From NCBI GenBank assembly GCA_021851885.1, contig JAJZBS010000002.1, positions 3,162 to 67,161 of the forward strand: a stretch of DNA of 64,000 nucleotides, read 5' to 3'. The stretch's first letter is position 1; the number at the start of each line of letters is the position of its first letter. This document shows, piece after piece, positions 17,314-64,000 of the stretch. The stretch is from Actinomycetes bacterium (lineage in GTDB: Bacteria > Actinomycetota > Acidimicrobiia > Acidimicrobiales > JAMCQF01). A program made the translations under genes and the position numbers. The notes beneath the pieces are model-generated. The model saw nothing but the letters and a program-made list of their open reading frames with translations, did no database searches and had not been told where the DNA came from.

Positions 17314-17328
17314 TGACGTCAAACGTCA
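17314..17328. promoter_or_regulatory. Dyad operator site O2
   Basis: TGACGTCAAACGTCA with perfect arms, plus an extra ACGT at 17311. It sits between the divergent hydrolase operon (-) and a FadD gene (+). CATACTAGAT lies downstream. Confidence 0.6.
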
Positions 17329-20490: not shown

Positions 20491-20505
20491 TAACGTTTGA
20501 CGTAC
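20491..20505. promoter_or_regulatory. Dyad operator site O3
   Basis: TAACGTTTGACGTAC with a perfect ACGT-N3-ACGT core. ATCTATCA lies just 5' (TGATAGAT on the minus strand, an extended -10-like element facing the VOC gene), and ACGTACGAT faces the plus strand. Confidence 0.55.
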
Positions 20506-21647: not shown

Positions 21648-21662
21648 TGACGTTGGGCGTCA
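21648..21662. promoter_or_regulatory. Dyad operator site O4 with sigma70-like promoter
   Basis: TGACGTTGGGCGTCA has one core mismatch. TTGACG (21647) is followed after 18 nt by TATATT (21671). ATCTATCA lies just 5'. Confidence 0.5.
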
Positions 21663-29655: not shown

Positions 29656-29756
29656 GCCCGAGGGGCTGCCGACAGCACACATCGGGGTGGACCGACCGCC
29701 GCCGAAGGAGGACATGAGCGACACAACGCGATCTGGAGGACGCGGCCAGCCTGGGG

Positions 29757-30551: not shown

Positions 30552-30606
30552 CGGGCGTCGTGATGGCGTCGCCACGCACCGACGGCTCGGCAACCTGAAA
30601 CACATT

Positions 30607-40578: not shown

Positions 40579-40593
40579 TTACGCTTGACGTCG
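40579..40593. promoter_or_regulatory. Dyad operator site O10
   Basis: TTACGCTTGACGTCG with one core mismatch, in a divergent region. AAATAGATAG lies downstream, and GCGTAAGAA is on the other strand. Confidence 0.45.
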
Positions 40594-40625
40594 CACGGCA
40601 AATAGATAGCCTTTCTGGGACGGAC

Positions 40626-42465: not shown

Positions 42466-42480
42466 TGACGTGTGACGTCA
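42466..42480. promoter_or_regulatory. Dyad operator site O11 (orphan, faces an IS-like remnant)
   Basis: TGACGTGTGACGTCA with perfect arms. GTGACG is followed after 17 nt by TAGTGT (42495). Confidence 0.55.
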
Positions 42481-42975: not shown

Positions 42976-42996
42976 TACGCTTTACGTCATACGTAA
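42975..42996. promoter_or_regulatory. Dyad operator site O12 (two overlapping sites offset by 7 nt)
   Basis: In GTACGCTTTACGTCATACGTAA, the distal site TTACGTCATACGTAA has perfect arms. It is followed by TAAGCG. Confidence 0.6.
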
Positions 42997-46246: not shown

Positions 46247-46261
46247 TTACGTTCAGCGTCA
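46247..46261. promoter_or_regulatory. Dyad operator site O13
   Basis: TTACGTTCAGCGTCA with one core mismatch, between divergent FadD genes. GATACTAGTACACT lies downstream. Confidence 0.5.
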
Positions 46262-49873: not shown

Positions 49874-50721
49874 CTGACCCTCGCTTCCGCCCGCTTCCAC
49901 TCGGCGTCGAGGATGCCCTTGAGGTACGGCAGCCGTTCCTTGCCCGAGAGAAAGTCGAACTTCACGGTGCCGAACGGGTCGATCCTGTTGCGCAGCAGCT
50001 CGAGCTGTTGCTCGGTCGGCTCGGCCGTGGTCGGAACCTCGCTGGGGACATCGAGCGCGAAGCCCGTGTTCTCGACGACCATCTGCGGGTCCACGCCTGG
50101 GTGGACGCTCTCGATTCGGAACGGCTCGCCGTCCTCATCCTTGACGAGCACGGCGAGGTTCGTCACGACGATGATCGGCCCGGGCTGCAGTCCGGCCTTC
50201 CGGCGTGCCTCGGCGCCGACCTTCCACCGCGTGCCCGTGACGAACTCGACCTTGTCGACGAGCGTACGCGAGTTGTGGTTGCCGAAGTAGGCGATCATCT
50301 TGCGGTACATCTTGATGACTTCCGCCGCCCCGGCGCCACCGGGAAGCCGTACCTTCGGCTTGTCGAACGGGCCGATCGTCGACAGGTTGATGGCGCCGTC
50401 CCCGTCGAACTGAGCGGACGAGACGGCCTCCACCCCACCGTGGTTGGAGAGGTGGATGGAATTGATCTCGGTGAGCATCCCCCAGCGGCAGACGGCGCCC
50501 TTGTAGGCGGCGGCCTCGGCGCCGGTGAACGACAGCTGGATGGGCGCCATGCCGACCGCGTCGAAGCCGACGAGGTAGGCGTTCGGTGCGTGGGTCAGCT
50601 TCGCCAGCATGTACGAGGCGTAGGCCAGGGGCGTGAACGATCCCATGACCGTCACCCCGTCCTCGTCGACCTCGGCGGCCACCCGGGTGACCATCAGCTC
50701 ATGGACATCGTATGCAGTCAC
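49870..50721 (-). CDS. CoA-transferase subunit B (family I, glutaconate-CoA-transferase/IpdB-like)
   Basis: 283 aa with a GTGA overlap with the subunit A stop. GGAG lies 8 nt upstream. It resembles beta subunits of two-subunit CoA-transferases. Confidence 0.75.
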   Translation of the reverse strand: MTAYDVHELMVTRVAAEVDEDGVTVMGSFTPLAYASYMLAKLTHAPNAYLVGFDAVGMAPIQLSFTGAEAAAYKGAVCRWGMLTEINSIHLSNHGGVEAVSSAQFDGDGAINLSTIGPFDKPKVRLPGGAGAAEVIKMYRKMIAYFGNHNSRTLVDKVEFVTGTRWKVGAEARRKAGLQPGPIIVVTNLAVLVKDEDGEPFRIESVHPGVDPQMVVENTGFALDVPSEVPTTAEPTEQQLELLRNRIDPFGTVKFDFLSGKERLPYLKGILDAEWKRAEARVR

Positions 50722-51629
50722 AGGTTCGCTCCTTCGAGAGTCTCGGCCGCGTCGACCAGGGCGGCGAGCACGACGTCGCGCCCGGTCAGGACGCGGGCCC
50801 GGTAGTCGTCCTCGCTCTCGGACCGGATCCGGTCGACATAGCCACCGAATTCGTCGGTTCCGGCCTGGCCCGCATAGTCCATGAGCTCCCAGGCATCCAT
50901 GGAGTAGCGGGGGATGTGGGACGTCGGGTGGGCCCCGAATGGCGCCTCGACGACGGCGTCGACGTAGTAGCCGGGCAACTTGGTCATGTGCGGGTTCTGC
51001 GCGATGACCGAGCGGTCGACGATCTCCTCGCAGGTGACGATGACCCGCCTTGCCGCCTTTGCCATGTCCACGTCGGGTCCGGAGGTGCCGTCCCACTGCG
51101 CGTTGCCCTCGGCGTCGCACCGCAGCGCGTGGACGATGGCCACGTCCGGCTGCAGTGCCCGGACGGCTGTGAGCTCCTCACCGGTGAAGGGGCAGGTGGT
51201 GGTGGCGTAGATCTCCGGGTAACGGGCCGGCAGGTCGGAGCCGAAGGGGCCCCGGTAGGGGAGGAACGGCATGCCGCGTCCCTGCGCCTCGAGCCCGATG
51301 AGCAGGCCGAGCCCGGTGTACTCGGTGAACGGTACCGATGCCGTCTCGATGGCCTTGCGGACGTTCGGAGCGAGGCCGAACGCTTCGAGCGTCACCATGG
51401 AGAATGACAGGTGGCCGAGGACACCGGCCGCTGCCAGCAGGTCCATGTCCACCGAGCCGACGACGGTGATGGCGTGGATGTCCTTCCGGCCGGCGCGGAT
51501 CAGCTGACGGACCGCCGCCATCGGGTGGTTGGCGAACCAGCCGCCTCCGAAGGCGACCGACTCGCCATCGGCGACGAGATCGCCGAGCTCATCGAGCGGT
51601 ACCACCTTGTCGGTGGGGGGCGGGGTCAC
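50718..51629 (-). CDS. CoA-transferase subunit A (family I, IpdA-like)
   Basis: ...DKVVPLDELGDLVADGESVAFGGGWFANHPMAAVRQLIRAGRKDIHAITVVGSVD... I chose the in-frame GTG 51629 as the start. It forms a GTGA overlap with a 15-codon SD-driven uORF (51673-51626). Confidence 0.75.
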   Translation of the reverse strand: MTPPPTDKVVPLDELGDLVADGESVAFGGGWFANHPMAAVRQLIRAGRKDIHAITVVGSVDMDLLAAAGVLGHLSFSMVTLEAFGLAPNVRKAIETASVPFTEYTGLGLLIGLEAQGRGMPFLPYRGPFGSDLPARYPEIYATTTCPFTGEELTAVRALQPDVAIVHALRCDAEGNAQWDGTSGPDVDMAKAARRVIVTCEEIVDRSVIAQNPHMTKLPGYYVDAVVEAPFGAHPTSHIPRYSMDAWELMDYAGQAGTDEFGGYVDRIRSESEDDYRARVLTGRDVVLAALVDAAETLEGANL

Positions 51630-51712
51630 CGGGTCACCACCGCATCGGATGTGAGCGAGTTGTAAGTGCCCACTGGGCCCTCCTAACAGGTCGGGTTGGG
51701 TTGACTGTAATC

Positions 51713-51727
51713 TATCGTTAAACGTCA
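51713..51727. promoter_or_regulatory. Dyad operator site O14 (faces the minus-strand CoA-transferase operon)
   Basis: TATCGTTAAACGTCA. The minus strand reads TGACGTTTAACGATAGATTACAG, so the arm fuses to TAGATT. Confidence 0.45.
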
Positions 51728-51894
51728 AAGTTTACCAGTGGGAGGACCCGAGGGCCACATGCGGGCCGGGAGTCCGGGCGCGTTGGTGGTGCCTGCCCGC
51801 CGGTCGGGCGCACGCCTGAACCGGGAGGGCGTGCTGTGGGCCCCCGGACGCGTCCCCGGTGGCCCCTGGCGAACTCGCCGGGGGTGTGCAAGAC

Positions 51895-51909
51895 TGACGC
51901 TTGACGTAA
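51895..51909. promoter_or_regulatory. Dyad operator site O15
   Basis: TGACGCTTGACGTAA with one core mismatch, fused to TAAAAT (51907-51912). It lies upstream of the meaB-mutase operon. Confidence 0.5.
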
Positions 51910-51913
51910 AATA

Positions 51914-52936
51914 GTGAATATTGACCACCCGTCCACCCGCAGCGAGACCCGGCCCGTGACGTCCTCCGCACCAGGCACATCTGAACTTGTGGTCAGCGAC
52001 AGCGTCCGTCATGCCGCGCGCCTGATCACCCAGATCGAGAACGGGGTCCCGGCCGCCCGCGCGGTCCTGGCCGAGTTACTGCCCCACTGCGGCTCGGCAC
52101 AGCTGGTCGGCATCACCGGCCCGCCGGGAGCGGGTAAGAGCACACTCACCGCGTCGCTCATCAAGGAGCTGCGGTCACAGGGCCGGAGCGTCGGGGTGAT
52201 CGCCGTCGACCCGTCGAGCCCCTTCTCCATGGGTGCCCTGCTCGGTGACCGTGACCGGATGCTCGAGGCGGCCAGCGGCGACCCTGGTGTCTTCATCCGC
52301 TCGCTCGCCTCGCGAGGTGTCCCGGGCGGGCTGGCCGCAGCCGTGAACGACGTCGTCGACGTGATGGACGCCATGGGCAAGGACGTGGTGATCGTGGAGA
52401 CCGTCGGCGTGGGCCAGGGTGAGCTGGAGATCGCCAAGATCGCCCACACCGTCGTGCTCGTGTTCGTCCCCGGGTACGGCGACGCGTTGCAGGCCATGAA
52501 GGCCGGGATCACGGAGATCGCCGACGTGGTTGCAGTCAACAAAGGCGACCTGGCCGAGGCGTCCAGGGCGGTCCAGGAACTGCGCGGCCAGGACTACGTC
52601 CGGCACGACCCGACGGCGGACCGGACCTGGGTGGTGCCGGTACAGAAGGTGTCGGCCCTCCGCAACGAGGGCATTGCCGAGCTCGTGGGGCTCATCGACG
52701 ACCACTACCGGTTCACAGCCCAGAGCGCCTGGCGGAGCGAGATCGAGCGCAACCGCCGCCACGCACAGTTCATGGCGTTCGTGACCGAGCGGCTGCGGGC
52801 CGAGCTGGCGTCGATCGACCTCGACGCCTTCGACGCCGGCTGGCTGCGTGATCCGTACGCGGCAGCAGAGGAATTCGTCACCGAGATCGTGAAGGCCCGT
52901 GCGGACAGAGGCGCCGTGGGCCTGGCAGCGAAATGA
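51914..52936 (+). CDS. meaB: Methylmalonyl-CoA-mutase-associated G-protein chaperone (MeaB/ArgK family)
   Basis: P-loop GITGPPGAGKST, VETVGVGQ and NKGD. The start is uncertain: GTG 51914 abuts the -10-like hexamer, and in-frame GTGs at 51956 and about 51989 are possible. Confidence 0.85.
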   Translation: MNIDHPSTRSETRPVTSSAPGTSELVVSDSVRHAARLITQIENGVPAARAVLAELLPHCGSAQLVGITGPPGAGKSTLTASLIKELRSQGRSVGVIAVDPSSPFSMGALLGDRDRMLEAASGDPGVFIRSLASRGVPGGLAAAVNDVVDVMDAMGKDVVIVETVGVGQGELEIAKIAHTVVLVFVPGYGDALQAMKAGITEIADVVAVNKGDLAEASRAVQELRGQDYVRHDPTADRTWVVPVQKVSALRNEGIAELVGLIDDHYRFTAQSAWRSEIERNRRHAQFMAFVTERLRAELASIDLDAFDAGWLRDPYAAAEEFVTEIVKARADRGAVGLAAK

Positions 52937-52949
52937 GAGCGAGGAACTG

Positions 52950-54620
52950 ATGAGCCAGGACGTTTCGACCGATTCCTTCGAGGCCCGCAAGCACGAGTGG
53001 GAGCAGCGCCGGGCGCGCTATGCCGACAAGTTGCGCCCGGGCAAGACGCTTTCGGGCCTGCCGGTCAAGACCGTCTACACGAAGGAGGACGTCACCGACA
53101 GCGATCTCGACGAGATGCCTGGCGTCTACCCCTTCACCCGTGGGCTCTACCCGGACGGCTATGCGCTCACCCCGTGGATGCAGCAGATGGTGTTCGGCTA
53201 CGGCACCATCGAGGAGACCCGCCAGAAGATGGAGAAGATGGTCGAGGAGGGCATGGAGGGCTACTTCGGCCACAAGGTCTTCAACACCGTCTACGACATC
53301 CCGTGCATGTACGGCATCGACGCCGACGATCCCGAGGCGGTCGGCAACCTCGGTCAGTGTGGGGTGCACATGAGCACCGGCGACGACTACGACGAGCTGA
53401 TCCGCGGCTGGGACCTGGAGTCCACGAACTTCTCGATGATCACCGGCGACAACTGCCTCCCTGCCCTCGCCCTGCTGGCGGCCGCGGTCGAGCGCCGGGG
53501 CGAGCCGTTCTCGAAGATGCACGGCAACTCGATGAACTGGTACCCCCGCATCGCCGTGCAGGACGTGCCGTCGTGGGAGCCCAAGTGGGGTTACGCCCTG
53601 ATCATCGATCTCGTCAAGTGGGCGATGGAGAACGCGCCCGACTGGAACCCGGTCAACATCTTCATGTACGGCATCTCCGAGGCGGGGGCCACCCCCGTCC
53701 AGGAGCTCGCCTACGGCCTGGCCTGGGGCAAGTCCATCATCGACGCCGGCCTGGCGGCCGGCCTGGCGCCTGACGACTTCATCGGCCGCCTGTCGTTCCA
53801 GATCGGCTGCACGGTCAACGTCTTCGAGGAGGTGGCCAAATTCCGGGCACACCGTCGCATGTGGGCGAAGATCTGTAAGGACGCCGGAGCCACCAAGCCG
53901 TCGAACATGCTGGCCCGGGTCCACGTGCACACGAGCGGGTACGTCCTGACCCAGCAGCAGCTGCTCAACAACACCGGCCGGATCACTCTCCAGACCCTGG
54001 CCGCCGTGCTCGGGGGCGTCGCCTCGATCCACACCTGCTCCTACGACGAGGCCGTCGGGGTGCCCACCGAGGAGTCCCACCGGACGGCGCTGCGCACGCA
54101 GCAGATCCTGATGTGGGAGAGCGGGCTGCGCGAGGTGGCCGACCCGCTCGGGGGCTCGTACTTCGTCGAGCAGCTGACCGACGACATGGAGGCGGCCGCC
54201 TGGGAGATCTACGACGAGATCGAGGCCGCCGGTGGCTACCAGCGCGGGATCGAGACCGGCGAGATCAAGCGCGCCATCGACAACTCCTCCTACGAGCTCA
54301 AGAAGATGGTCAACAGCGGTGAGCTGCCGGTGGTGGGCGTCAATCGCTATGTCACGGACGAGCAGGAGAACTACGAGCCGTTCCGGATCGATGAGTCGAT
54401 CGAAGAGAAGGCCAAGGCCCGGCTGCAGGACTACCGGGCACGGCGCGACGAGACCGCCGTCAGGGCGGCGCTCGAGAACGTGCGGGTGGCGTGCGAGGCG
54501 CTGAAGGAAGGCACGGGTTCGCTGATGCCTGCGCTGGTCGACGCAGCCCGGGCCGGCGCCACCAACGGCGAGATGATGGTGCCGATGCGCGACGCGTTCG
54601 GCTGGTTCGTCAGCGAGTGA
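52950..54620 (+). CDS. B12-dependent acyl-CoA mutase large (substrate-binding) subunit, divergent
   Basis: YPFTRGLYP, EVAKFRAHRRMWAKI, and ALRTQQILMWESGLREVADPLGGSYFVEQLT are mutase-family blocks. The expected RQYAGF and GTIQNDILKE blocks instead read QQMVFGYG and HGNSMNWYPRIAV. Confidence 0.8.
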   Translation: MSQDVSTDSFEARKHEWEQRRARYADKLRPGKTLSGLPVKTVYTKEDVTDSDLDEMPGVYPFTRGLYPDGYALTPWMQQMVFGYGTIEETRQKMEKMVEEGMEGYFGHKVFNTVYDIPCMYGIDADDPEAVGNLGQCGVHMSTGDDYDELIRGWDLESTNFSMITGDNCLPALALLAAAVERRGEPFSKMHGNSMNWYPRIAVQDVPSWEPKWGYALIIDLVKWAMENAPDWNPVNIFMYGISEAGATPVQELAYGLAWGKSIIDAGLAAGLAPDDFIGRLSFQIGCTVNVFEEVAKFRAHRRMWAKICKDAGATKPSNMLARVHVHTSGYVLTQQQLLNNTGRITLQTLAAVLGGVASIHTCSYDEAVGVPTEESHRTALRTQQILMWESGLREVADPLGGSYFVEQLTDDMEAAAWEIYDEIEAAGGYQRGIETGEIKRAIDNSSYELKKMVNSGELPVVGVNRYVTDEQENYEPFRIDESIEEKAKARLQDYRARRDETAVRAALENVRVACEALKEGTGSLMPALVDAARAGATNGEMMVPMRDAFGWFVSE

Positions 54621-54652
54621 TCATCAACCCCGAACGCGTGAGATAGGAGTAG

Positions 54653-55063
54653 GTGGTGTCGAAGGAGCACATCAAGGTCCTCCTGGCCAAGAAGAAGATC
54701 GACGTCCACGGGCGCGGCACCAAGCTGCTCGCCCGCGAACTGCGCGACGCCGGGATGGAAGTCGTCTACTTCCGGTTCGGTGTCGTCGATGAGATCGCCG
54801 ATGCTGCGGTGCAGGAGGACGTCGACGTGGTCGGCGTGAGCGTCATGACCAGCGGCCAGATCCAGATCGCCCGCGGCCTCATCCCCGCGCTGAAAGCGCG
54901 TGGGCTCGACAATGTCCTGGTCATCATGGGGGGCATCATCCCCGAGGTCGACTACGAGCCGCTGTACGAGCTTGGCATCCACCGTTGCTTCGCCCCGGGC
55001 CTGCCTGGTGGAGCGGTCGCCGAGTACATCAGGGAGAACGTCGGGACCGCCACGCTCGGTTGA
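54653..55063 (+). CDS. Acyl-CoA mutase small (cobalamin-binding) subunit
   Basis: 136 aa with the DxHxxG motif (IDVHGRG), GVSVMTSG, and the MGGIIP Rossmann-like B12-binding domain. AGGAG lies upstream, with a GTG start at 54653/54656. Confidence 0.85.
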   Translation: MVSKEHIKVLLAKKKIDVHGRGTKLLARELRDAGMEVVYFRFGVVDEIADAAVQEDVDVVGVSVMTSGQIQIARGLIPALKARGLDNVLVIMGGIIPEVDYEPLYELGIHRCFAPGLPGGAVAEYIRENVGTATLG

Positions 55064-55118
55064 GTGGTCAGGCCGGCGGCAGGTACGGAGGCCCACTTGG
55101 GCCCAAGGAGGGACAGCC

Positions 55119-55928
55119 ATGGCCGCGCTCGCTGGAGTGCACGGCAAGTCGGTGATCGTGACCGGTGGAGGCGGGGGGCTGGGGTCGTCCTTGGCCGCGG
55201 AGCTCTGTCGGCTGGGTGCCCGGGTGGTGGTGTGCGGTCGCACGCAGGCCACCCTTGACCAGGCCGTCGACGCGATCGATGCCGAGCTCGGGCCCGACCA
55301 GGCCTACGCGGTCACGTGCGACGTCAGGGACCCGCAGTCCGTCCGGGACCTGTTCGACCGGGCCGAGGAGCTGCTCGGCGGCGTCGACGGCCTCGTCAAC
55401 AACGCGTCCGGTCTGTTCCCGGTCAAGGCCGAGGACCTCAGCGCCAACGGGTTCGACGCCGTGGTCAAGATCGTCCTGAACGGCACGTGGCACTGCACGT
55501 CCGAGGCCGGCCGCCGTTGGCTGGCCGCCGGGCGCAAGGGCGCGGTGGTCAACGTCCTCACGCCGTACGCGTGGATGGGTGCCCCCGGCATCGTTCACAA
55601 CGCGTCGGCGAAAGGAGGCGTGCTCGCCATGACGCGGACGCTGGGTGCCGAGTGGGCGGGCCGTGGTGTCCGGGTGAACGCCGTGGCACCAGGTTGGATG
55701 CCGGTCGGGGGAACGGAGTTCCTGGCAGGCGACCCGGCGGTGCGGGATCGCCTCATCGAGGCGATCCCGGCCGGGCGGCTGCTCCAGCCGGAGGAGACCG
55801 CACGGGCCGTGGCATACCTGCTCTCCGACGACGCCGATTACGTGGTGGGGGAGACCCTGACGATCGACGGCGGGCACCACCTGTCGAAGGGCCTGTTCGA
55901 GTTCCTGCACGAGGTACCCGCCCGCTGA
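55119..55928 (+). CDS. SDR family oxidoreductase (2,4-dienoyl-CoA-reductase-like)
   Basis: GKSVIVTGGGGGLGSS, NNAS, and SAKGG in place of YxxxK. AAGGAGGGA precedes the ATG. Confidence 0.8.
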   Translation: MAALAGVHGKSVIVTGGGGGLGSSLAAELCRLGARVVVCGRTQATLDQAVDAIDAELGPDQAYAVTCDVRDPQSVRDLFDRAEELLGGVDGLVNNASGLFPVKAEDLSANGFDAVVKIVLNGTWHCTSEAGRRWLAAGRKGAVVNVLTPYAWMGAPGIVHNASAKGGVLAMTRTLGAEWAGRGVRVNAVAPGWMPVGGTEFLAGDPAVRDRLIEAIPAGRLLQPEETARAVAYLLSDDADYVVGETLTIDGGHHLSKGLFEFLHEVPAR

Positions 55929-55980
55929 GCGCGTTCCCCTGGGGGGTATGAGCCGGGTTACGCGATAGAGACGCTACCCT

Positions 55981-55995
55981 TGACGATAGTCGTGA
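55981..55995. promoter_or_regulatory. Degenerate dyad O16 (ACGA-N3-TCGT) upstream of MerR-1
   Basis: TGACGATAGTCGTGA, preceded by cTTGACG. It has two core mismatches relative to the family and is weak. Confidence 0.25.
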
Positions 55996-56023
55996 ACGTT
56001 TGATGTCGAAAGGGTGAGGGCAG

Positions 56024-56569
56024 ATGTCCACCGGCGAGCGCAAGCCTGATTCCGCACCAGCGAAGCCACGTCGTGGCAGGCAGTCCCCGAATGATCGGGT
56101 ATTGAAGGCCGCCGAACCGGCCGGCAAACTCCCCGATCCCGTCGGGGAGACGGTCAGCATCGGTGAGCTGGCGAGGCGGACGAACGTGTCGACGCGGACC
56201 ATCCGCTACTACGAGGAGCTCGGCATCCTGCCCGAACCGGAGCGGACGTCGGGAGGCACCCGGCGGTACCCGACGGATTACATCTTCTACGTGGAAGGGG
56301 CAAAGATCCTGAAGCAGCTGGGCTTCGGGCTCGAGGAGATCGCCGAGCTGGGCAAGTTCGCGCTGACCGGGGCATCGGCGTCCAAGCGGACGCGCGCCAT
56401 CCTTCAGCAGAAGCTCGGTGAGCTCAACCACCGGATCGGGGTGCTCGACCGCTTGCACGACCTGGTGGAGCAGGCGTCCTCCGATCCGACGGCGAAGGAC
56501 CTGCCGGTGCCCGAGCTCCTCCGCTGGGTGACCGAAGAGAACGGCCTCCGGGCGGTCGCCGGCGACTGA
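56024..56569 (+). CDS. MerR family transcriptional regulator (paralog 1)
   Basis: HTH region IGELARRTNVSTRTIRYYEELGILPEPERTSGGTRRYP. GGGTGAGGG precedes the ATG. About 75% identical by eye to 63093-63602 over the core. Confidence 0.88.
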   Translation: MSTGERKPDSAPAKPRRGRQSPNDRVLKAAEPAGKLPDPVGETVSIGELARRTNVSTRTIRYYEELGILPEPERTSGGTRRYPTDYIFYVEGAKILKQLGFGLEEIAELGKFALTGASASKRTRAILQQKLGELNHRIGVLDRLHDLVEQASSDPTAKDLPVPELLRWVTEENGLRAVAGD

Positions 56570-56728
56570 CTCGCCATGGGAGAAGATGTGTCACGTTGAC
56601 CGCGTGGCGGCGACCGGTGTCCACCCAGGACCTGTCCCGCCGCCCCGGAGAACACTAGGGGCGTCCGACGGACCTGGCGAGGCCGCCGGGGCGCGATCGA
56701 CGGTGGACGTCGGTGGCGAACCATGATA

Positions 56729-56743
56729 TAACGTTGGACGTCA
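56729..56743. promoter_or_regulatory. Dyad operator site O17
   Basis: TAACGTTGGACGTCA with a perfect core, upstream of the MaoC-ACAD operon. Confidence 0.6.
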
Positions 56744-56771
56744 AGTGGTAGAAGCTACGGCTGGAGCGCGC

Positions 56772-57227
56772 ATGTTCGACAGGTACTACGACGAACTCGA
56801 GGTCGGCGACCGGCGCGAGTTCAGCGGCGTCACGATCACCGAGACCCACGTCGTCAACTTCGCCGGGGTCACCGGGGACCACTTCGGTCTGCACATGGAC
56901 GCCGAGTACGCGAAATCCACGCCGTTCGGGCAGCGGATCGCCCACGGTCTGCTGGTGTTGTCGGTCGGTGCGGGCCTGATCCCGCTCCTCCCCGGTCGGG
57001 TCCAGGCCTTCATGGGCATGGACGAGGTGCGGTTCCTGGCGCCGGTCTTCTTCGGCGACACGGTCCATCCCGTGATGGAGGTGCTCGAGAAGGAGGACAA
57101 GAAGTCCGGCGGCACCGTCGTGATCCAGGAGAACATCGTCAATCAGAAGGGCGACGTCGTGGTATCGGCGAAGATCCGGATCTGGGTGGGGTCCAGTCCG
57201 GAGGGCGCCGGGACCCCGCCCGCCTGA
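56772..57227 (+). CDS. MaoC-like (R)-specific enoyl-CoA hydratase/dehydratase
   Basis: Hot-dog fold pattern ...ITETHVVNFAGVTGDHFGLHMDAEYA...FGQRIAHGLL. GGAG lies 5 nt before ATG 56772. Confidence 0.85.
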   Translation: MFDRYYDELEVGDRREFSGVTITETHVVNFAGVTGDHFGLHMDAEYAKSTPFGQRIAHGLLVLSVGAGLIPLLPGRVQAFMGMDEVRFLAPVFFGDTVHPVMEVLEKEDKKSGGTVVIQENIVNQKGDVVVSAKIRIWVGSSPEGAGTPPA

Positions 57228-57300
57228 ACTATCCACCCGAGACGTGACGCGGTACGGCACCCGCTCGGGTGGCAACCGGGCATGCAGTGACGGAGACGCC

Positions 57301-58449
57301 ATGGAACGGAACCTCTTCGAGCCGGACCACCTCGCCTTCCGCGACTCGGTGCGCACGTTCATCGCGCGCAACGTGGCGGATGACTACGAGCGCTGGGAGC
57401 ACGAGGGCATGGTCGACCGCCTCCTCTGGAACCGGGCCGGGGAGGCCGGGTTCCTCGGGATGTCCATTCCCGAGGAGTACGGCGGCGGCGGCGTGGTGGA
57501 CTTCCGGTTCAACGCGACGCTGACCGAGGAGTTCGCGCTCTCCAACATGCTGTCGCTCTCGTCGGGGTTCGGCCTGCACAACGACGTGGTGGCGCCCTAC
57601 CTGGTGGAGCTGGGCACGCCCGAGCAGCACGCCCGCTGGCTGCCGGGGTTCTGCTCGGGTGACATCGTCACCGCCATCGCCATGACGGAGCCCGATGCCG
57701 GGAGTGACCTGAAGGGGGTGCGCACCACGGCGCGCCGCGATGGTGATTCGTACGTCGTGAACGGCACCAAGACGTTCATCACCAACGGGATCCACGCCGA
57801 CCTCGTGATCGTCGTGGCCAAGACCGATCCGGGAGCCGGGGCACGCGGGATGAGCCTGCTGGTCGTGGAGCGCGGCATGGAGGGGTTCGAGCGCGGCCGG
57901 CGCCTGTCCAAGGCGGGCATGCACGCGCAGGACACCGCCGAGCTGGTGTTCAACGACGTGCGCGTTCCGGCCGAGAACCTCCTCGGCCAGGAGAACGGCG
58001 CCTTCGGGCACCTGATGGACAATCTGCCCCAGGAGCGGTTGTCGATCGCCGTCGTCGCCGGTGCCGCCGCACGAGCTGCGTTCGCATGGACGGTCGACTA
58101 CTGCCACGACCGCAAGGCCTTCGGTCAGCCGATCGGCAGCTTCCAGAACAGCCGGTTCAAGCTCGCCGAGATGGCGACGGAGATCGAGGTCACCCAGCAC
58201 TACATCGACCAGTGTGTGGTGGACCACCATGCAGGCCGCCTCAGCGCGGTGGGGGCCGCAAAGGTGAAGTGGTGGGCGACCGAGGTGATGAAGCGGGTGA
58301 CGGACACCTGCGTGCAGCTCCACGGCGGGTATGGCTACATGGACGAGTACCCGATCTCGCGCGCCTGGCGTGACGCCCGGGTCCACACCATCTTCGGTGG
58401 CACGACCGAGATCATGAAAGAGATCATCGGCCGCGACCTGGGGTTCTGA
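57301..58449 (+). CDS. Acyl-CoA dehydrogenase
   Basis: AMTEPDAGSDL and a C-terminal ...IFGGTTEIMKEIIGRDL. GGAG lies 5 nt before the ATG. Confidence 0.92.
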   Translation: MERNLFEPDHLAFRDSVRTFIARNVADDYERWEHEGMVDRLLWNRAGEAGFLGMSIPEEYGGGGVVDFRFNATLTEEFALSNMLSLSSGFGLHNDVVAPYLVELGTPEQHARWLPGFCSGDIVTAIAMTEPDAGSDLKGVRTTARRDGDSYVVNGTKTFITNGIHADLVIVVAKTDPGAGARGMSLLVVERGMEGFERGRRLSKAGMHAQDTAELVFNDVRVPAENLLGQENGAFGHLMDNLPQERLSIAVVAGAAARAAFAWTVDYCHDRKAFGQPIGSFQNSRFKLAEMATEIEVTQHYIDQCVVDHHAGRLSAVGAAKVKWWATEVMKRVTDTCVQLHGGYGYMDEYPISRAWRDARVHTIFGGTTEIMKEIIGRDLGF

Positions 58450-58458
58450 GGGCGGGCC

Positions 58459-59922
58459 TCAGGCCGGTTGGCGATGGGCGACGTGGCGGCCGGCGACCCG
58501 TCCGAAGAACGACCCCGGCCCGAGACTGAGGCCGCTCGCGTACCCCTTGCCGTCCTGGGCGATGGTCGATGCACACGCCCCGGCCGCGTACAGCCCGGGC
58601 ACGGGGCGGCCCCGGGTCGTCAGTACCCGGGCATCGGCGTCGGTGCGCAGCCCGCCGAGGGTCATGAACAGGTAGGACGACGTGTCGAAGGAGACGTCGA
58701 ACGCCGCCCACGGACCGTTCGTCAGCGGCACCACCCAGTCGGGGTGCTTCATGAACTGCGGGTCCTCGCCGCTCGCCGCGTGCTCGTTGTACGCGGCGAG
58801 CGTGGCGACGAGCGCGCCGGCGGGCATGCCCAGGGCCCGTTCCATCTCCTCGACGGTTTCCCATCCGTCGACCAGCGTGTGCCGGTGCGCGGTGATCTTC
58901 GGATAGGCGAACGTGGCCGCGTCGACGACCAGGAATGCCCTCTGCTCCGGCTGCTCCATGATGAAGCCGGCCGTACGCCCGTGGTAGGCGTCCTCCGCCA
59001 CGAAGCGCTCGCCCCGCAGGTTGACGAGCACCCCCTTGATGAGCCCGCTGGGCGGGTAGAACGAGCCGGTGGCAATGATGCCGCCCATCGACTGGGTGCT
59101 GGCACCGGCGGAAACTCCGAGCACGATGCCGGAACCGTCGTTGCCGGGGACGCCCAGCGGTTCCGAGGTCGCGGCCAGTGACGGGACGTGCTCGGCGAGC
59201 ATCCCCGGGTCGAAATTGAAGCCGCCGGTGCCGAGGACGACGCCGCGCCCCGCCCGCAGGTGGACGTCTGCGCCGTCGCGCCGTGCGCGCACGCCGATGA
59301 TCCCGCCGTCGCCACCGGCGACGAGGGCGGTGACTCGGGTGTCGGACATCGCCGGGAGATCCTCGGCCTGGCACGTGGCCAGGATGGCCTGCATGCCGAC
59401 GGCACCGGCGTGCTCGCCCTCGCCGGCGACCTTGTGTCCGCGCGGCGCCGGCCGGGCGATCTCCCGGAACGGCCACGCCTTCTCATTGCCGGTGCTGAAC
59501 AGCCCGGTGGTGCTGGTCAGGACCACCGACTTCCCGCCGAAATAGCTGCGTTCGAAGGGCACCCCCTGGGCCTCGAGCCAGTCGAAATGCTCCGGGCTCC
59601 CGAGGCAGTAGCGCCGCACGATGGAGGCATCGGGCGCGTTCGTGCTGGACAGGAGGAACTTGTACATCTCCTCGGGATCGTCCTCGTGCCCGAGATCCCG
59701 CTGCAGGGCGGTGCCACCGCCCAGATAGAAGATGCCCGACGAGACGATACTGGACCCACCGGGACCGCCCGCCCGGTCCACGACGAGGACGTCGGCGCCG
59801 GCTCGCTGCGCCTCGAGTGCGGCACAGGCGCCGGCGATCCCGTAGCCGACCACCACGACGTCGACGGTCTCGTCCCACGTGGCCACGTCCTCGGCGGGGA
59901 CCAAAGCTACCTGTTCGGGCAT
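58459..59922 (-). CDS. FAD-dependent oxidoreductase (KstD/fumarate-reductase-flavoprotein-like)
   Basis: VDVVVVGYGIAGACAALEAQRAG dinucleotide motif and a C-terminal GLYAAGACAS. 487 aa. Confidence 0.8.
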   Translation of the reverse strand: MPEQVALVPAEDVATWDETVDVVVVGYGIAGACAALEAQRAGADVLVVDRAGGPGGSSIVSSGIFYLGGGTALQRDLGHEDDPEEMYKFLLSSTNAPDASIVRRYCLGSPEHFDWLEAQGVPFERSYFGGKSVVLTSTTGLFSTGNEKAWPFREIARPAPRGHKVAGEGEHAGAVGMQAILATCQAEDLPAMSDTRVTALVAGGDGGIIGVRARRDGADVHLRAGRGVVLGTGGFNFDPGMLAEHVPSLAATSEPLGVPGNDGSGIVLGVSAGASTQSMGGIIATGSFYPPSGLIKGVLVNLRGERFVAEDAYHGRTAGFIMEQPEQRAFLVVDAATFAYPKITAHRHTLVDGWETVEEMERALGMPAGALVATLAAYNEHAASGEDPQFMKHPDWVVPLTNGPWAAFDVSFDTSSYLFMTLGGLRTDADARVLTTRGRPVPGLYAAGACASTIAQDGKGYASGLSLGPGSFFGRVAGRHVAHRQPA

Positions 59923-59971
59923 GGGACCCTCCTCGGCCGATGAGCACTGACGGCACCGAGCCTAACGATAC

Positions 59972-59986
59972 GTACGATTAACGTCC
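59972..59986. promoter_or_regulatory. Degenerate dyad O18 in a divergent promoter region
   Basis: GTACGATTAACGTCC within AACGATACGTACGATTAACGT. TACCAT (60002) is followed after 6 nt by ATG 60014, which looks leaderless. Confidence 0.3.
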
Positions 59987-60013
59987 AATGGCAGATCGCT
60001 GTACCATTCCGAC

Positions 60014-61219
60014 ATGGACTTCGAACTTTCGGAGGCGGCGAGCGACGCCAGCGAGCGGATGTGGCAGTTCATGCGCGAGGAGGTCTTCCCGGCGGAGCCG
60101 CGGTGGTACGAGCACCTGCGCACCCATGGGGAGCACAGCCACCCGCCGTTGATGGAGCAGCTGAAGGACTCCGCCCGCAGGCGCGGACTGTGGAACCTGT
60201 TCCTGCCGGAGTTGGGGGGGATGAGCAACGTCGACTACGCGGCGGTGGCCGAGATCTCCGGCTGGTCGCCGGTGATCGCCCCCGAGGCCATCAACTGCCA
60301 GGCGCCCGACTCCGGGAACATGGAGACCCTGAGCCTGTTCGCGACGCCTGCGCAGAAAGAGGCCTGGCTCAAACCGTTGCTCGACGGCGAGATCCGGTCG
60401 GCGTTCGCGATGAGCGAGCCCGATGTCGCCTCCTCCGACGCGACCAACATCGCTACCGTCATCCGCCGCGACGGCGACGAGTACGTCATCAACGGGCGGA
60501 AATGGTGGATCACCGGCACGGCCGACGAGCGCTGCTCGATCCTCATCGTCATGGGCAAGACTGATCCGGACGCCGAACCGCACCGCCAGCAGTCGATGGT
60601 CCTCGTCCCACGGGACACGCCTGGCGTGCACGTCGAGCGGCACCTGCCCATCTTCGGCTACCAGGACCAGCACGGTCACTCGGAGATCGTCCTCCGCGAC
60701 GTGCGCGTCCCGGCCGCAAACCTCCTGGGGGAAGAGGGTGACGGGTTCCGCATCGCCCAGGCACGCCTGGGACCGGGCCGCATCCACCACGCCATGCGGG
60801 CGATCGGCATGGCCGAGCGGGCGCTGGCGCTGATGGTGGACCGGTCCAGGTACCGGTCGGTGTTCGGCTCCAAGCTGTCCGATCACGCCGTCGTGCAGGA
60901 GCTCGTCGCGCAGTCGAGGATCGAGATCGACCAGGTCCGCCTGTACGTCTACCGCACGGCCTGGCTCATCGACCGCTACGGGGCGAAGGGGGCGCGTTCG
61001 GAGATCGCGGGGATCAAGGTGGCGGCACCGGCCATGGCCACCCGCGTCATCGACCGCGCCATCGAGGTGTTCGGTGCCATGGGCCTCAGCGACGACACGC
61101 CGCTCGCCTACTTCTACGCCTGGGCCCGGGCGCTGCGTGTGGTCGACGGACCGGACGCCGTGCACCGCCGGACGGTGGCGCGCCAGGAACTTCGCCGCGA
61201 GCGGCCGTACACCGGGTAG
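60014..61219 (+). CDS. Acyl-CoA dehydrogenase, FadE2/ACAD10-11-type
   Basis: SEPDVASSDATNI..YVINGRKWWITG is characteristic of the ACAD10/11-FadE2 clade (recall). No SD, with a -10-like hexamer 6 nt upstream of the ATG. Confidence 0.88.
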   Translation: MDFELSEAASDASERMWQFMREEVFPAEPRWYEHLRTHGEHSHPPLMEQLKDSARRRGLWNLFLPELGGMSNVDYAAVAEISGWSPVIAPEAINCQAPDSGNMETLSLFATPAQKEAWLKPLLDGEIRSAFAMSEPDVASSDATNIATVIRRDGDEYVINGRKWWITGTADERCSILIVMGKTDPDAEPHRQQSMVLVPRDTPGVHVERHLPIFGYQDQHGHSEIVLRDVRVPAANLLGEEGDGFRIAQARLGPGRIHHAMRAIGMAERALALMVDRSRYRSVFGSKLSDHAVVQELVAQSRIEIDQVRLYVYRTAWLIDRYGAKGARSEIAGIKVAAPAMATRVIDRAIEVFGAMGLSDDTPLAYFYAWARALRVVDGPDAVHRRTVARQELRRERPYTG

Positions 61220-61306
61220 CGGTGGGGACCACCGCCACGACGGCCGCCCAGGAACGCTTGATCCCGGGTTCGGATCCTGGCGCTGATGACGCACGTGAGA
61301 TAGAGT

Positions 61307-61321
61307 TTACGTTGAACGTTA
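61307..61321. promoter_or_regulatory. Dyad operator site O19
   Basis: TTACGTTGAACGTTA with a perfect core, followed by TAGATAAGAT. AAGGAGG and GTG 61348 come next. Confidence 0.6.
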
Positions 61322-61347
61322 GATAAGATCTGAAGGAGGGCGTCGCC

Positions 61348-62139
61348 GTGGCCGATGTGGAGCGGATCGACAAGGAAACGTTGTACGTGGAGACACACCT
61401 CGAACCGCGGTATGCGGTCATCACCCTGCATCGCCCGGACGTTCTGAACGCCGGGAGCCCGACGCTCTTCCGCGAGCTTGCGGAGACCATCGAGTCGTTC
61501 GACGGCGACGACCGGGTCCGCGCCGTGGTGCTGACCGGTGGTGACAGCCGGGCCTTCTCCGCCGGTGCCGACCTCGGCGGGATGACCTTCGACAACATGG
61601 CGAACTGCCGCAGCTTCATCCGCCAGGCACACGCTCCCTTCGAAGCGATCGAGCGGCTGCCCAAGGTGGTCATCGCAGCGGTCAACGGCTACGCCTTCGG
61701 TTTTGGTACCGAGATCGTGCTGGCCTGCGACCTGGCCCTTGCGTCGGACAAGGCCCGTTTCGGGCTCCGGGAGATGAACCACGGTCTGGTGCCGGCGGTG
61801 ACCATCACCCGCGGTGTCGACATGCTCGGCCGCCGCCGCGTGGCCTGGATGGCGCTCACCTCCGACGACCTGAACGCCGAGGAGGCCCGCGAGGTGGGGA
61901 TCGTCAACAAGGTGGTTCCCCACGAGCAGCTCGTGGAGGAGTACACGGCGCTGGCCACGCGCATGGCCAAGCGCGCTCCGCTGGCGGTCTCCTTCACCAA
62001 GTGGACCCTGAACCGGACGGCCGGCGAGCACTACCGCCAGGGGGAGAACCTGATGCCGGCGATCTTCGCCTCGAAGGACGTCGAGGAGGGCCGGAACGCC
62101 TTCGCCGAGCACCGGGATCCGGTGTTCCGTGGGGAGTGA
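61348..62139 (+). CDS. Enoyl-CoA hydratase/isomerase family protein
   Basis: AVITLHRPDVLNA...LTGGDSRAFSAGADL crotonase motif. Confidence 0.88.
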   Translation: MADVERIDKETLYVETHLEPRYAVITLHRPDVLNAGSPTLFRELAETIESFDGDDRVRAVVLTGGDSRAFSAGADLGGMTFDNMANCRSFIRQAHAPFEAIERLPKVVIAAVNGYAFGFGTEIVLACDLALASDKARFGLREMNHGLVPAVTITRGVDMLGRRRVAWMALTSDDLNAEEAREVGIVNKVVPHEQLVEEYTALATRMAKRAPLAVSFTKWTLNRTAGEHYRQGENLMPAIFASKDVEEGRNAFAEHRDPVFRGE

Positions 62140-62214
62140 CCGCTGCGTGACCGTGACGAACGAGGCCTCGCGACAACAGACGTCCGAGGGCTCACGACCG
62201 AAAAGGACTCTTGC

Positions 62215-62991
62215 ATGAGCGTGCTCGACCAGTTCCGTCTCGACGGCAGGGTGGCCATCGTGACCGGCGCGTCCTCGGGACTCGGCGTGGCCTTCGCCGA
62301 AGTCCTGGCCGATGCCGGCGCCGACCTGGTGCTCGGTGCCCGGCGGGTGGACCGCCTCGACGAAACTCGGCAGAAGGTGGAGGCGCTCGGCGGAAGGTGC
62401 GTCGCCGTCGCCACCGACGTCTCCGACGCAGCGCAGTGCAAGAGGCTCGTCGATACGGCCGTCTCCGAGCTCGGCCGGGTCGACATCCTCGTCAACAACG
62501 CGGGCGTCGGCTACGCCACCCCGGCCCACAAGGAGGACCCGGGCAACTTCAACGACATCCTGCAGATCAATCTGGTGGGTGCCTGGTTCATGGCGCAAGC
62601 GTTCGGCCAGGCGTGCATCGACGCAGGGCATGGGGGCTCGATCGTCAACGTGTCGTCCGTCCTCGGCATCAGCGGCAGCGAGATCCCGCAGGTTGCGTAC
62701 TCGGCCTCCAAGGCCGGGATGCTTGGGATGACCCGGGACCTCGCCATGCAGTGGGGAGGGCGACGGGGCATCCGCGTGAATGCCCTCGCCCCGAGCTTCT
62801 TCGACTCGGAGCTCACCGGTCCGCTGCTGGCCACTGAGGTCGGCAGGGAGAAGGTGCTGGCCCGCACCCCCATGGGACGGGTGGGAGAGGTGTCGGAGCT
62901 CGCGGGACCCCTGTTGCTGCTGGCTTCCGACGCCGGCTCGTACATCAATGGCATCACGCTCGCTGTCGATGGCGGCTGGAGCCTGCACTGA
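62215..62991 (+). CDS. SDR family oxidoreductase
   Basis: GRVAIVTGASSGLGV, NNAG and YSASKAG motifs. Same length as, and clearly paralogous to, 49097-49873. Confidence 0.88.
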   Translation: MSVLDQFRLDGRVAIVTGASSGLGVAFAEVLADAGADLVLGARRVDRLDETRQKVEALGGRCVAVATDVSDAAQCKRLVDTAVSELGRVDILVNNAGVGYATPAHKEDPGNFNDILQINLVGAWFMAQAFGQACIDAGHGGSIVNVSSVLGISGSEIPQVAYSASKAGMLGMTRDLAMQWGGRRGIRVNALAPSFFDSELTGPLLATEVGREKVLARTPMGRVGEVSELAGPLLLLASDAGSYINGITLAVDGGWSLH

Positions 62992-63092
62992 GCTCCACGG
63001 GACGGCGAGCGACGGATCCCTGAACGGTCGGCACCAGGACGGGTCGGTACCACGACGGACCGCCCATTCCTTCGAGCACGGTGAGGTCGCAT

Positions 63093-63602
63093 ATGGCTCC
63101 CACATCCGAAGACACCCCGGCCCGGCCGGCGGCCGGCGACGAGAAGGTCGCGCCAGCGGAGGGAGCTGCGGGCCAGACCGATGACGAGCAGCTCAGCATC
63201 GGCGAGCTGGCCGCGCTGGCGGCCGTCTCGACCAGGACGATCCGTTACTACGAGGAGCTCGGCATCCTGCCGGCCCCGCCCCGTACGTCAGGCGGCACCC
63301 GTCGATATCCGCGTGCCTACGTCTTCTACCTCCAGGGTGCCAAGGTCCTGAAACAGCTGGGCTTCGGCCTCGAGGAGATCGCCGAGCTCGGACAGTTCGC
63401 CCTGGTCGGCACATCCGCGTCGGCCCGGACTCGGGCCATCCTGCAGCAGAAGCAGACGGAGCTCAGTCGCCAGATCCGGGTGCTCGACCGGCTCCACGAG
63501 ATCGTCCGCGACGCCGTCGCGAAAGACCACCCCTCCGACCAGTCGCCCGTCACCGACCTGCTGCTCTGGGTCGGCACTGAGAACGGGTCGGTCGCCGATT
63601 GA
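63093..63602 (+). CDS. MerR family transcriptional regulator (paralog 2)
   Basis: HTH region IGELAALAAVSTRTIRYYEELGILPAPPRTSGGTRRYP. GGTGAGG lies 6 nt before ATG 63093. Confidence 0.88.
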   Translation: MAPTSEDTPARPAAGDEKVAPAEGAAGQTDDEQLSIGELAALAAVSTRTIRYYEELGILPAPPRTSGGTRRYPRAYVFYLQGAKVLKQLGFGLEEIAELGQFALVGTSASARTRAILQQKQTELSRQIRVLDRLHEIVRDAVAKDHPSDQSPVTDLLLWVGTENGSVAD

Positions 63603-63645
63603 GCACGGGCGCCGTCGTCGTGAGCGACTCGCGCACCCGTGGGCG

Positions 63646-64000
63646 TCACCCCGACGCGACAACCGCCGGGTCGACGTCGACGTTCGCGACGAAGTCGCTG
63701 GCCACGGCTCCGGGCTCGATCACCACGACGGTGACGCCGACGGTGGCGGCCACGGGCACCAGGCTCTCCATGAACCCCTCGACGGCGAACTTGGCCGCGC
63801 AGTAGGCCTCGTTGAACGGCTGGCCGATCGCGCCGCCGACGCTCGACACCGTCACCAGCCGGCCGCCCGAGGCACGCAGGTGGGGCATCGCCGCCTTGGT
63901 GACCGCCACCACGCCGAAGAAGTTGACCTCCATCACCCGGCGGACGTCGTCGACGGACTCGGTCTCGATCGTCCCCAGGTGGCCGGCGCCGGCGTTGTTG
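63646..64000 (-). CDS. SDR family oxidoreductase, 3' part (5' end outside window)
   Basis: The frame is open to the window edge: ...[31 protein letters not shown]...[10 protein letters not shown]... Confidence 0.8.

Follow-up and report, generated by a model that had tools for sequence, protein, structure and literature searches.

LiuR, a MerR-family repressor of Proteobacteria, regulates branched-chain amino-acid and acyl-CoA catabolism through the liu, ivd and bkd operons (PMC3223726, PMC5343134, PMC7238569), and the protein called LiuR in Streptomyces is the TetR-family regulator SCO2775 (bioRxiv 10.64898/2026.06.06.730586). Here we analysed a 64-kb stretch of an acidimicrobial genome (contig JAJZBS010000002.1, 69% G+C; hereafter the window), which carries the genes of two small MerR-family proteins, MerR-1 and MerR-2, together with repeated copies of a 15-bp dyad, T-N-A-C-G-T-N3-A-C-G-T-N-A. 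In the literature that we searched, no characterised actinobacterial homolog of this MerR subfamily was found, and the MerR gene of a Nocardioides steroid study stands in an unrelated gene context. Judging from comparative sequence evidence, we consider it probable (roughly 0.7) that the dyad is the operator of an actinobacterial MerR lineage, termed subfamily A below, and that MerR-1 represses through it.

The dyad was found to be enriched in the window. At up to one mismatch, TNACGTNNNACGTNA gave 17 matches against 1.16 expected, and none of 100 shuffles reached 17, while TNACG-N5-CGTNA gave 16 exact matches against 0.87 expected. Two exact matches were excluded, one at 55312 inside the coding sequence of a short-chain dehydrogenase/reductase (SDR) and one at 30549-30563 (a weaker, GC-rich match over a stop codon, 58 bp upstream of the dyad at 30607), and a curated set of 16 promoter-region sites was retained (Table 1). 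Nearly all dyads lie in promoter-bearing intergenic DNA. The symmetrised matrix showed that ACG/CGT is invariant, that T1, A3, T6, A10, T13 and A15 are near-invariant and that position 2/14 is degenerate. All ten dyad coordinates of the original prediction were recovered by our motif scan, which added the six sites marked as new in Table 1.

Pfam scans of about 55 open reading frames (ORFs) revealed that the window is a catabolic island. It encodes five acyl-CoA ligases, four acyl-CoA dehydrogenases (ACADs), enoyl-CoA hydratases (ECHs), many SDRs and alcohol dehydrogenases (ADHs), KstD-like flavoproteins, luciferase-like monooxygenases, thiolase, CoA-transferase and MaoC proteins, and MeaB with a B12-dependent mutase. 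Dyads precede ACAD, ECH, MaoC, CoA-transferase, acyl-CoA ligase and mutase operons, and also merR-1 itself. Only three regulator genes were detected, those of MerR-1, MerR-2 and one TetR-family protein; the promoter region of the last contains no dyad at up to two mismatches, and on both counts the original prediction was right.

We compared the MerR genes and the dyad across genomes. A scan of the sequence collection returned at least 80 loci, over two thirds of which carried unrelated MerR genes and were used as negative controls. The translated MerR genes of the examined loci fell into three subfamilies. Subfamily A, which carries VSTRTIRYYEE, GGTRRY, LKQLGFGLEE and a C-terminal LLRW (signature VSTRTIRYYEELGILP...GGTRRY...LKQLGFGLEE...LLRW), includes MerR-1 and, as a diverged branch, MerR-2; subfamily B is marked by VSPRTIRYYEE, and subfamily C by VSSRTIRYYEE and GGTRKY. 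Subfamily-A genes were present in 13 loci: the window, L001 and L086 (Acidimicrobiia), L081 (Streptomyces armeniacus), L084 (Sphaerisporangium), L085 (Thermobifida halotolerans), L109 (Microbispora), L082 (Nostocoides) and the metagenomes L029, L083, L092, L110 and L111. Orthologs of MerR-1, the window's own member, were found in L001, L081-L086 and L109-L111. The nearest relative among the matches listed was L001, an Acidimicrobiaceae metagenome-assembled genome (MAG), whose MerR-1 ortholog is 84% identical. MerR-1 homologs are plentiful in Actinobacteria, forming hundreds of 90%-identity clusters annotated merely as "MerR family regulator".

The results showed that the dyad precedes the merR transcription unit in 12 of the 13 subfamily-A loci, which represent at least two actinobacterial classes, and that in 8 of these 12 a private site lies between the upstream gene and merR. 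Private dyads also stand before four subfamily-B genes (L002, L004, L085, L109). In every subfamily-A locus merR adjoins genes for a MaoC dehydratase and an ACAD, and in 12 of the 13 this MaoC-ACAD pair is preceded by the near-invariant TAACGTTSAACGTCA, whose position and orientation do not change. We counted 34 dyads in 212 kb of subfamily-A or subfamily-B loci, 8 in 317 kb of 21 other high-GC MerR loci, and none in 241 kb of 16 high-GC loci with subfamily C only (Streptosporangiaceae-type MAGs). No other regulator family recurred beside the dyads, GntR being seen in one locus, IclR in one and TetR in two. A metagenome scan with the 18-nt MaoC operator gave 22 matches, nearly all of them single chance matches in low-GC contigs; the sole informative match, L092, carries a subfamily-A MerR gene plus a second dyad. 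Judged by the criteria customary in comparative regulon reconstruction, this cross-genome linkage, with no other recurring regulator, assigns the dyad to the MerR lineage. Co-occurrence in 12 of 13 loci, private dyads and the lack of a rival regulator thus favour the MerR proteins as the best candidates for the dyad-binding factor, as originally proposed.

The regulon appears expanded in Acidimicrobiia, where the 64 kb of the window contain 16 sites, against 2-3 per 20 kb outside this class. A common gene set was seen to travel with subfamily-A merR in Acidimicrobiia, Streptomyces, Thermobifida, Microbispora and Nostocoides (window; L081-L086, L109-L111). It comprises MaoC, an ACAD ending in ...EIMKEIIGRDLGF, KstD-like FAD_binding_2 proteins, a thiamine pyrophosphate enzyme, an Oxidored_FMN (old-yellow-enzyme-type) reductase, an APH-like kinase, an MFS_4 transporter and an aldehyde dehydrogenase, and looks like a conserved catabolic pathway. 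In L029, where six dyads were found, the frame of the subfamily-A MerR gene (9860-10804) is broken after the helix-turn-helix (HTH) and family-like sequence then resumes, either through an assembly error or because the gene is a pseudogene. In the Streptosporangiaceae-type MAGs L007-L024, a box CTAC[TG]ATCCGT[GA]AT lies about 100-200 nt upstream of each subfamily-C MerR gene, followed in L007, L008 and L013 by a GTGATTA direct repeat, and no dyad was found within 8-20 kb of these genes. This CTACTATCCGTGAT box fits the dyad at no spacing and was ruled out as a variant of it; it could represent a -10 region or an operator of another kind.

The site directly before merR-1, at 55981-55995, was found to be a variant dyad, with a non-T at position 6 and a non-A at position 10. 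Orthologous variant sites stand before merR in L001, L029, L081, L084, L092, L110 and L111, and before the subfamily-B genes of L002, L004, L085 and L109. At these two positions the merR-proximal sites read ACGA, ACGG or ACGC instead of ACGT. T at position 6 occurred in 1 of 24 own-promoter half-sites versus 26 of 26 at the MaoC sites of the same genomes (p = 2e-13). Since the own-site sequences vary between lineages, selection and not inheritance accounts for the deviation. Most simply, these sites would be weakened autoregulatory operators, and the pattern is the one that would be expected of tuned autoregulation.

Both MerR genes exist as originally described, and each directly follows an SDR gene (55119-55928 for MerR-1, 62215-62991 for MerR-2). 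They had also been taken as the last genes of dyad-preceded operons. Both do lie downstream of dyad-preceded strings: the dyad at 51895 is followed by MeaB, the mutase, its B12 subunit, the SDR and MerR-1, and the dyad at 61307 by ECH, SDR and MerR-2. The 95-bp gap between SDR and MerR-1, however, holds the private dyad 55981-55995, so MerR-1 is not simply the last gene of that operon. Directly before MerR-2 the motif scan of the window found no private dyad, and this gene is probably co-transcribed with ECH and SDR from the dyad-61307 promoter. An ortholog of MerR-2 is present in L001 (17736-18329) and missing from L086, where a subfamily-C gene in the reverse orientation takes its position.

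MerR-1 and MerR-2 are 60% identical over 167 residues (E 1e-64), and both exceeded the Pfam cut-offs for MerR (63 and 59 bits, cut-off 28.2), MerR_1 (54 and 53 bits, cut-off 21.6) and MerR-DNA-bind (32.6 and 35 bits, cut-off 25.4), tested as PF00376, PF13411 and PF09278. The segment STRTIRYYEELGILP...RTSGGTRRYP is identical in the two proteins, as are the recognition helix and the wing. The near identity of HTH and wing reported earlier is therefore real, but because the core STRTIRYYEELGILP.P.RT.GGTRRY is invariant in 42 homolog sequences, it is a property of the family and not special to the pair. The AlphaFold2 model of MerR-1, built on 42 homologs, had a core pLDDT of ~90. It predicts a disordered basic tail (residues 1-41), a winged HTH (44-98; helices 46-53, 57-65 and 86-98, strand 80-83), a dimerisation helix (121-153; 33 residues, pLDDT 82-89) and a C-terminal helix bearing the conserved LLRW motif. 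Neither Pfam nor the model showed a sensor domain beyond this single short C-terminal helix. The top structural neighbours of the model in the PDB were the short MerR proteins HiNmlR, SoxR, CueR and CadR, the top fold matches were MerR-family dimers throughout, and the best match of a PDB sequence search had E = 2.6e-12. Such a MerR fold with a dimerisation helix would suit a 2-fold symmetric operator.

NCBIfam equivalog scores for the two proteins were 38-68 bits, far under the cut-offs of 117-261 bits, placing them in the MerR family but in no named subgroup. Neither protein contains a cysteine; on this ground and because of the sub-threshold equivalog scores, the metal- and redox-sensing subgroup (MerR, CueR, ZntR, CadR, SoxR) was ruled out. 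A B12-dependent regulator of the CarH/LitR type was considered because B12 mutase genes are neighbours, and was rejected since a protein of 181 aa with one short C-terminal helix has no B12-binding domain. The paralogs differ in helix 1, which reads ARRTN in MerR-1 and AALAA in MerR-2, so that two arginines are absent from the latter, and in the charge of the N-terminal tail, about +3 (basic) in MerR-1 and about -6 (acidic) in MerR-2. These differences would more plausibly alter affinity than base specificity.

We then examined how the dyads are placed relative to predicted promoters. At 8 of the 16 window sites, a -10-like nAnnnT hexamer borders one side of the dyad without a gap. Counted by flanks, this is 9 of 32, against 2% in the intergenic DNA nearby (p = 8e-9), and the hexamer nearly always occupies the upstream flank with respect to the neighbouring gene. 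At the merR dyad, the hexamer is kept in place in 10 other loci as TACCCT, TACCAT, TACAAT, TACGCT or TAAACT. The ECH dyad has an abutting TAnnnT (TAGAGT at 61301; TAGAGT, TATACT or TAGCGT in relatives) and a CTGGCG at 61277, the MeaB dyad has a -10-like AAGACT at 51890 (AAGACT or AACACT in relatives) and a CTGGCG box at 51866, and in L111 TATAAT|TGACG precedes a KstD-like gene. Such an abutting hexamer would put the operator at about -6 to +9, over the predicted transcription start, which suggests repressor geometry. At the ligase promoter with the dyad at 46247, the conserved hexamer TACACT follows the dyad at a distance of 8 nt, so that the dyad would cover the -35 region there.

The dyad had been thought to lie in or next to a MerR-type promoter spacer, and this view was not supported: the dyad mostly abuts the downstream edge of the -10-like hexamer. 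No operator centred in a 19-20-bp spacer, the arrangement of canonical MerR activation, was seen at the merR, ECH, MeaB and several other predicted promoters, and a consensus promoter scan of positions 50000-64000 found no promoter. The varied positions with ordinary 17-18-bp spacers would fit a steric repressor and would not be tolerated by a MerR-type activator. As a separate observation, the CTGGCG boxes (51866-51871 and 61277-61282) lie 18 nt upstream of the hexamer, occur as CTGGCR in L001, L086 and L083, and may be the -35 element of a particular sigma factor.

Taken together, we propose that a MerR-1 dimer would bind about 16 operators in the 64-kb catabolic island and would repress rather than activate. 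Because these operators would adjoin the -10 element on its downstream side or overlap it, and in some cases cover the -35 element, the bound dimer would block transcription initiation, and a pathway metabolite would lift the repression. MerR-1 would also repress its own promoter through the conserved non-consensus operator at 55981-55995. MerR-2 would be a lineage-restricted duplicate with the same base-reading surface, minus two helix-1 arginines and with an acidic tail, and would most likely read the same operators as a homodimer or heterodimer, adding a second input. Acyl-CoA thioesters as effectors are a conjecture prompted by the content of the regulon, and the suggestion of the original prediction that the two paralogs answer to different CoA thioesters finds no support in the sequence.

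Several points weigh against this model. The assignment rests on co-localisation and footprinting, and the MerR proteins have no recognisable ligand-binding domain. The MerR-1 ortholog of L086 has no private dyad and is accompanied instead by a perfect 16-bp palindrome, GCTTGCAGCTGCAAGC (L086 9950-9985), and in L003, a subfamily-B locus, no dyad lies within 20 kb. In the Acidimicrobiia L005 and L009, dyads occur beside subfamily-C genes only, which would allow a different paralog, or several, to be the reader in this lineage. The -10 assignments are uncertain in 70%-GC DNA. Finally, the MaoC promoter, and no other, would allow a MerR-type reading, namely nTGATA - 20 bp - TGn-extended -10, in which a 19-20-bp spacer encloses the dyad.

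If a regulator encoded elsewhere in the genome bound the dyad, the MerR genes would merely be members of its regulon, with other targets or none here. We regard this as unlikely. The 64 kb are only part of the genome, dyads before merR would be equally expected if merR were a target gene, and MerR-2 has no private site; yet merR and the dyad stay adjacent across actinobacterial classes while every other neighbour varies, the merR-proximal sites form a conserved variant class of their own, as is typical of autoregulation, and a 2-fold symmetric operator suits a MerR dimer. Within the window, the sole other regulator gene is that of the TetR protein (10866-11570). Regulators of the TetR family frequently govern acyl-CoA catabolism by way of 15-bp palindromes, and in Nostocoides (L082) a one-mismatch dyad precedes an operon holding the orthologous TetR gene. 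It is nevertheless very improbable that this protein is the dyad-binding repressor: its own dyad-free promoter region, shared with the divergent luciferase-like monooxygenase gene, carries a different inverted repeat, TAATCGAC-N17-GTCGTTA (11563-11594), which probably marks a separate small regulon, and most dyad-bearing loci (L081, L083-L086, L109-L111) have no TetR gene. An RNA or DNA hairpin (an attenuator or processing site) in place of a protein operator is the least credible of the alternatives. The dyad is an inverted repeat and some copies could make a 6-7-bp stem, but the predicted stems are weak (0 to -6.9 kcal/mol, half of them -1.5 or weaker), the ACG/CGT core is invariant rather than co-varying, the sites lie at or upstream of likely transcription starts, and no Rfam family was matched.

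A further alternative stays within the MerR family: another paralog would read the dyad, whether MerR-2 or a subfamily-C protein whose gene lies outside the window, with MerR-1 having a narrower role or the paralogs splitting the sites by half-site or heterodimerising. Paralog pairs do recur, as MerR-1 with MerR-2 (window, L001), A with C (L086) and A with B (L085, L109), MerR-1 and MerR-2 closely resemble each other in the dimerisation helix, and the dyads of L005 and L009 would fit such a role for subfamily C. The original prediction had sorted the arms into TTACGT-type, TGACGT-type and hybrid sites. Position 2 across the window dyads is G in 11 arms, T in 11, A in 8 and C in 2, and the two arms are identical in 6 of 16 sites, with no arm-to-arm association (permutation p = 0.28); hence there is no two-class arm structure in the window, and the partition fell. 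The grouping of TAACGT with TTACGT was arbitrary. Across genomes, position 2 is conserved at orthologous sites, the MaoC site is an invariant A/G hybrid, and the own sites of subfamily B are A-type in 7 of 8 half-sites versus G-type in 10 of 16 for subfamily A (p = 0.002), so that a paralog-specific half-site preference or heterodimers are possible. Set against this, recognition helix and wing are shared by MerR-1 and MerR-2, loci in which no second paralog was seen (L081, L110, L111) keep the A/G hybrid MaoC site, and L086 keeps its dyads without a MerR-2 ortholog. Overall, we doubt that another paralog is the reader. A more elaborate version, in which the pair works on one operator family with slightly different position-2/14 half-site preferences and forms heterodimers on the asymmetric TAACGT/ACGTCA operator of MaoC-ACAD, is improbable in our estimate; there MerR-2, because of its acidic tail and lost helix-1 arginines, might serve as an effector-dependent modulator or anti-repressor and not be a repressor in its own right. 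To our knowledge, no combinatorial control by MerR heterodimers has been described. Repression by MerR-1 through the dyad is the reading that we prefer.

The coordinates of the genes, dyads and promoter element are collected in Table 1. Within the mutase string, MeaB lies at 51905-52936, the large subunit at 52899-54620 and the small subunit at 54653-55063, and the acyl-CoA mutase is nearest to the 2-hydroxyisobutyryl-CoA mutase HcmA (4r3u, E 5e-99), with methylmalonyl-CoA mutase lower (E 2e-91). Between an ADH gene (-) and a glyoxalase-family gene (+) lies a one-mismatch dyad, TGACGTCGCACGGCA (40586-40600), which a TACGCT hexamer abuts; it shares the -10/dyad design of 42976-42996 and may be a weak seventeenth operator. 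The module of TetR, ECH, amine-oxidase, luciferase and MFS_4 genes is also present in Nostocoides (L082). Two ORFs of the island gave partial matches, 27170-27865 to a GMC oxidoreductase (C-terminal part only) and 29718-30551 to hydantoinase B, and may be gene fragments or pseudogenes.

Table 1. Genes, putative operators and promoter element in the window; sites marked new were not in the original prediction.
Feature	Positions	Strand	Location or target	Remarks
TetR gene (TetR_C_24)	10866-11570	-		Pfam
MeaB, HcmA-like acyl-CoA mutase large subunit, B12-binding small subunit, SDR	51905-55928	+		Pfam, NCBIfam, PDB sequence search
MerR-1	56024-56569	+		181 aa, ATG start, intact ORF; subfamily A
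MaoC dehydratase and ACAD	56745-58449	+		Pfam; core putative target operon, syntenic with merR in all subfamily-A loci
ECH and SDR genes before MerR-2	61348-62991	+		ORFs; L086 annotation of syntenic genes
MerR-2	63093-63602	+		Intact ORF from ATG; alternative upstream GTG at 63081; diverged subfamily-A paralog
Dyad TAACGTAACACGTTA	6884-6898		Between KstD-like flavoprotein gene (-) and luciferase-like monooxygenase gene (+)	New
Dyad TGACGTCAAACGTCA	17314-17328		Between gene of no assigned family (-) and acyl-CoA ligase gene (+)	
Candidate dyad TAACGTTTGACGTAC	20491-20505		Upstream of glyoxalase-family gene (-)	One mismatch; new
Dyad TGACGTTGGGCGTCA	21648-21662		Upstream of oxidoreductase gene, then ABC transporter genes	
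Dyad TAACGTTGGACGTAA	27960-27974			Motif scan
Dyad TCACGTTGGACGTAA	30607-30621		Upstream of alpha/beta-hydrolase and SDR genes	New
Dyad TTACGTTAGACGTAA	33906-33920		Between SDR gene (-) and DUF7064/7065 gene (+)	
Dyad TAACGTAGGACGTAA	38853-38867		Divergent promoter region beside SnoaL-like gene (-)	
Dyad TGACGTGTGACGTCA	42466-42480			Motif scan
Dyad TTACGTCATACGTAA	42982-42996		Upstream of gene of no assigned family and APH-family kinase gene	Abutting TACGCT
Dyad TTACGTTCAGCGTCA	46247-46261		Between two divergent acyl-CoA ligase genes	Conserved in L001 (218) and L086 (277)
Putative operator TATCGTTAAACGTCA	51713-51727		Before divergent CoA-transferase genes	One mismatch; conserved in L001 (5670) and L086 (5719); new
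Putative operator TGACGCTTGACGTAA	51895-51909		Before MeaB-mutase-B12 subunit-SDR(-MerR-1)	Conserved in L001, L086 and L083
-10-like hexamer TACCCT	55975-55980	+	Abuts MerR-1 operator	Predicted
Putative private operator of MerR-1 TGACGATAGTCGTGA	55981-55995		29 nt before start codon	New
Putative operator TAACGTTGGACGTCA	56729-56743		Before MaoC-ACAD	Most conserved site of the regulon
Putative operator TTACGTTGAACGTTA	61307-61321		Before ECH-SDR-MerR-2	Conserved in L001 and L086; new

The operator assignment could serve as a regulon predictor that delimits the pathway in any genome, and the subfamily, which travels with a conserved gene set that also includes an HcmA-like B12 mutase, is widespread in Actinobacteria. 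After proteobacterial LiuR, MerR-1 would be the second MerR protein without a sensor domain to be used as a catabolic repressor, with its operators placed as for a classical repressor. The finding is useful and testable, and the view of MerR proteins at large is unchanged by it.

Compared with the classical MerR activators (MerR, CueR, ZntR, SoxR, BmrR), the proteins of the window are predicted to share the winged HTH, the antiparallel coiled-coil dimer and the short C-terminal element, and the putative operators, like those of the activators, are 2-fold symmetric and situated at the predicted core promoter. Unlike the activators, MerR-1 and MerR-2 are free of cysteine and score far below the equivalog cut-offs, the MerR-1 subfamily has a disordered N-terminal tail of about 40 residues, and the dyad lies mostly downstream of the -10-like element of promoters with 17-18-bp spacers, not within a spacer of 19-20 bp. 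HiNmlR, of the NmlR-AdhR group ("lacking the sensor domain"), is among the best structural matches (target-normalised TM-score ~0.63), and this group has the same minimal architecture, with nothing but a short helix at the C-terminus. Sequence identity is ~22%, however, NmlR proteins sense through a conserved cysteine that MerR-1 and MerR-2 lack, and their adhC/estD stress regulon and operator differ. The TetR-type acyl-CoA repressors FadR, KstR, KstR2 and PaaR follow the same logic, with a ~15-bp palindrome over catabolic core promoters and presumed release by CoA thioesters, but belong to a different protein family, and the TetR protein of the window is unassociated with the dyad.

LiuR is the system that resembles this one most by description. 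Like MerR-1, it is a small MerR-family protein without a metal site that uses a palindromic box at many ACAD and hydratase operons and is encoded in its own regulon, and in the window a MerR protein likewise lies within, and putative operators before, ACAD/hydratase-type operons including its own gene. The two come from different phyla and are not demonstrably orthologous, and neither Pfam nor NCBIfam holds a LiuR-specific model. LiuR governs liu and ivd, whereas the regulon proposed for the island consists of MaoC-ACAD, the HcmA-like mutase, KstD-like flavoproteins and acyl-CoA ligases. By this analogy, the system would be of an ordinary kind, a MerR-family repressor resembling LiuR that controls a catabolic regulon and its own gene, and its modest peculiarities would be the repressor-type placement of the operators, the conserved weakened auto-operator and the recurrent paralog pairs.

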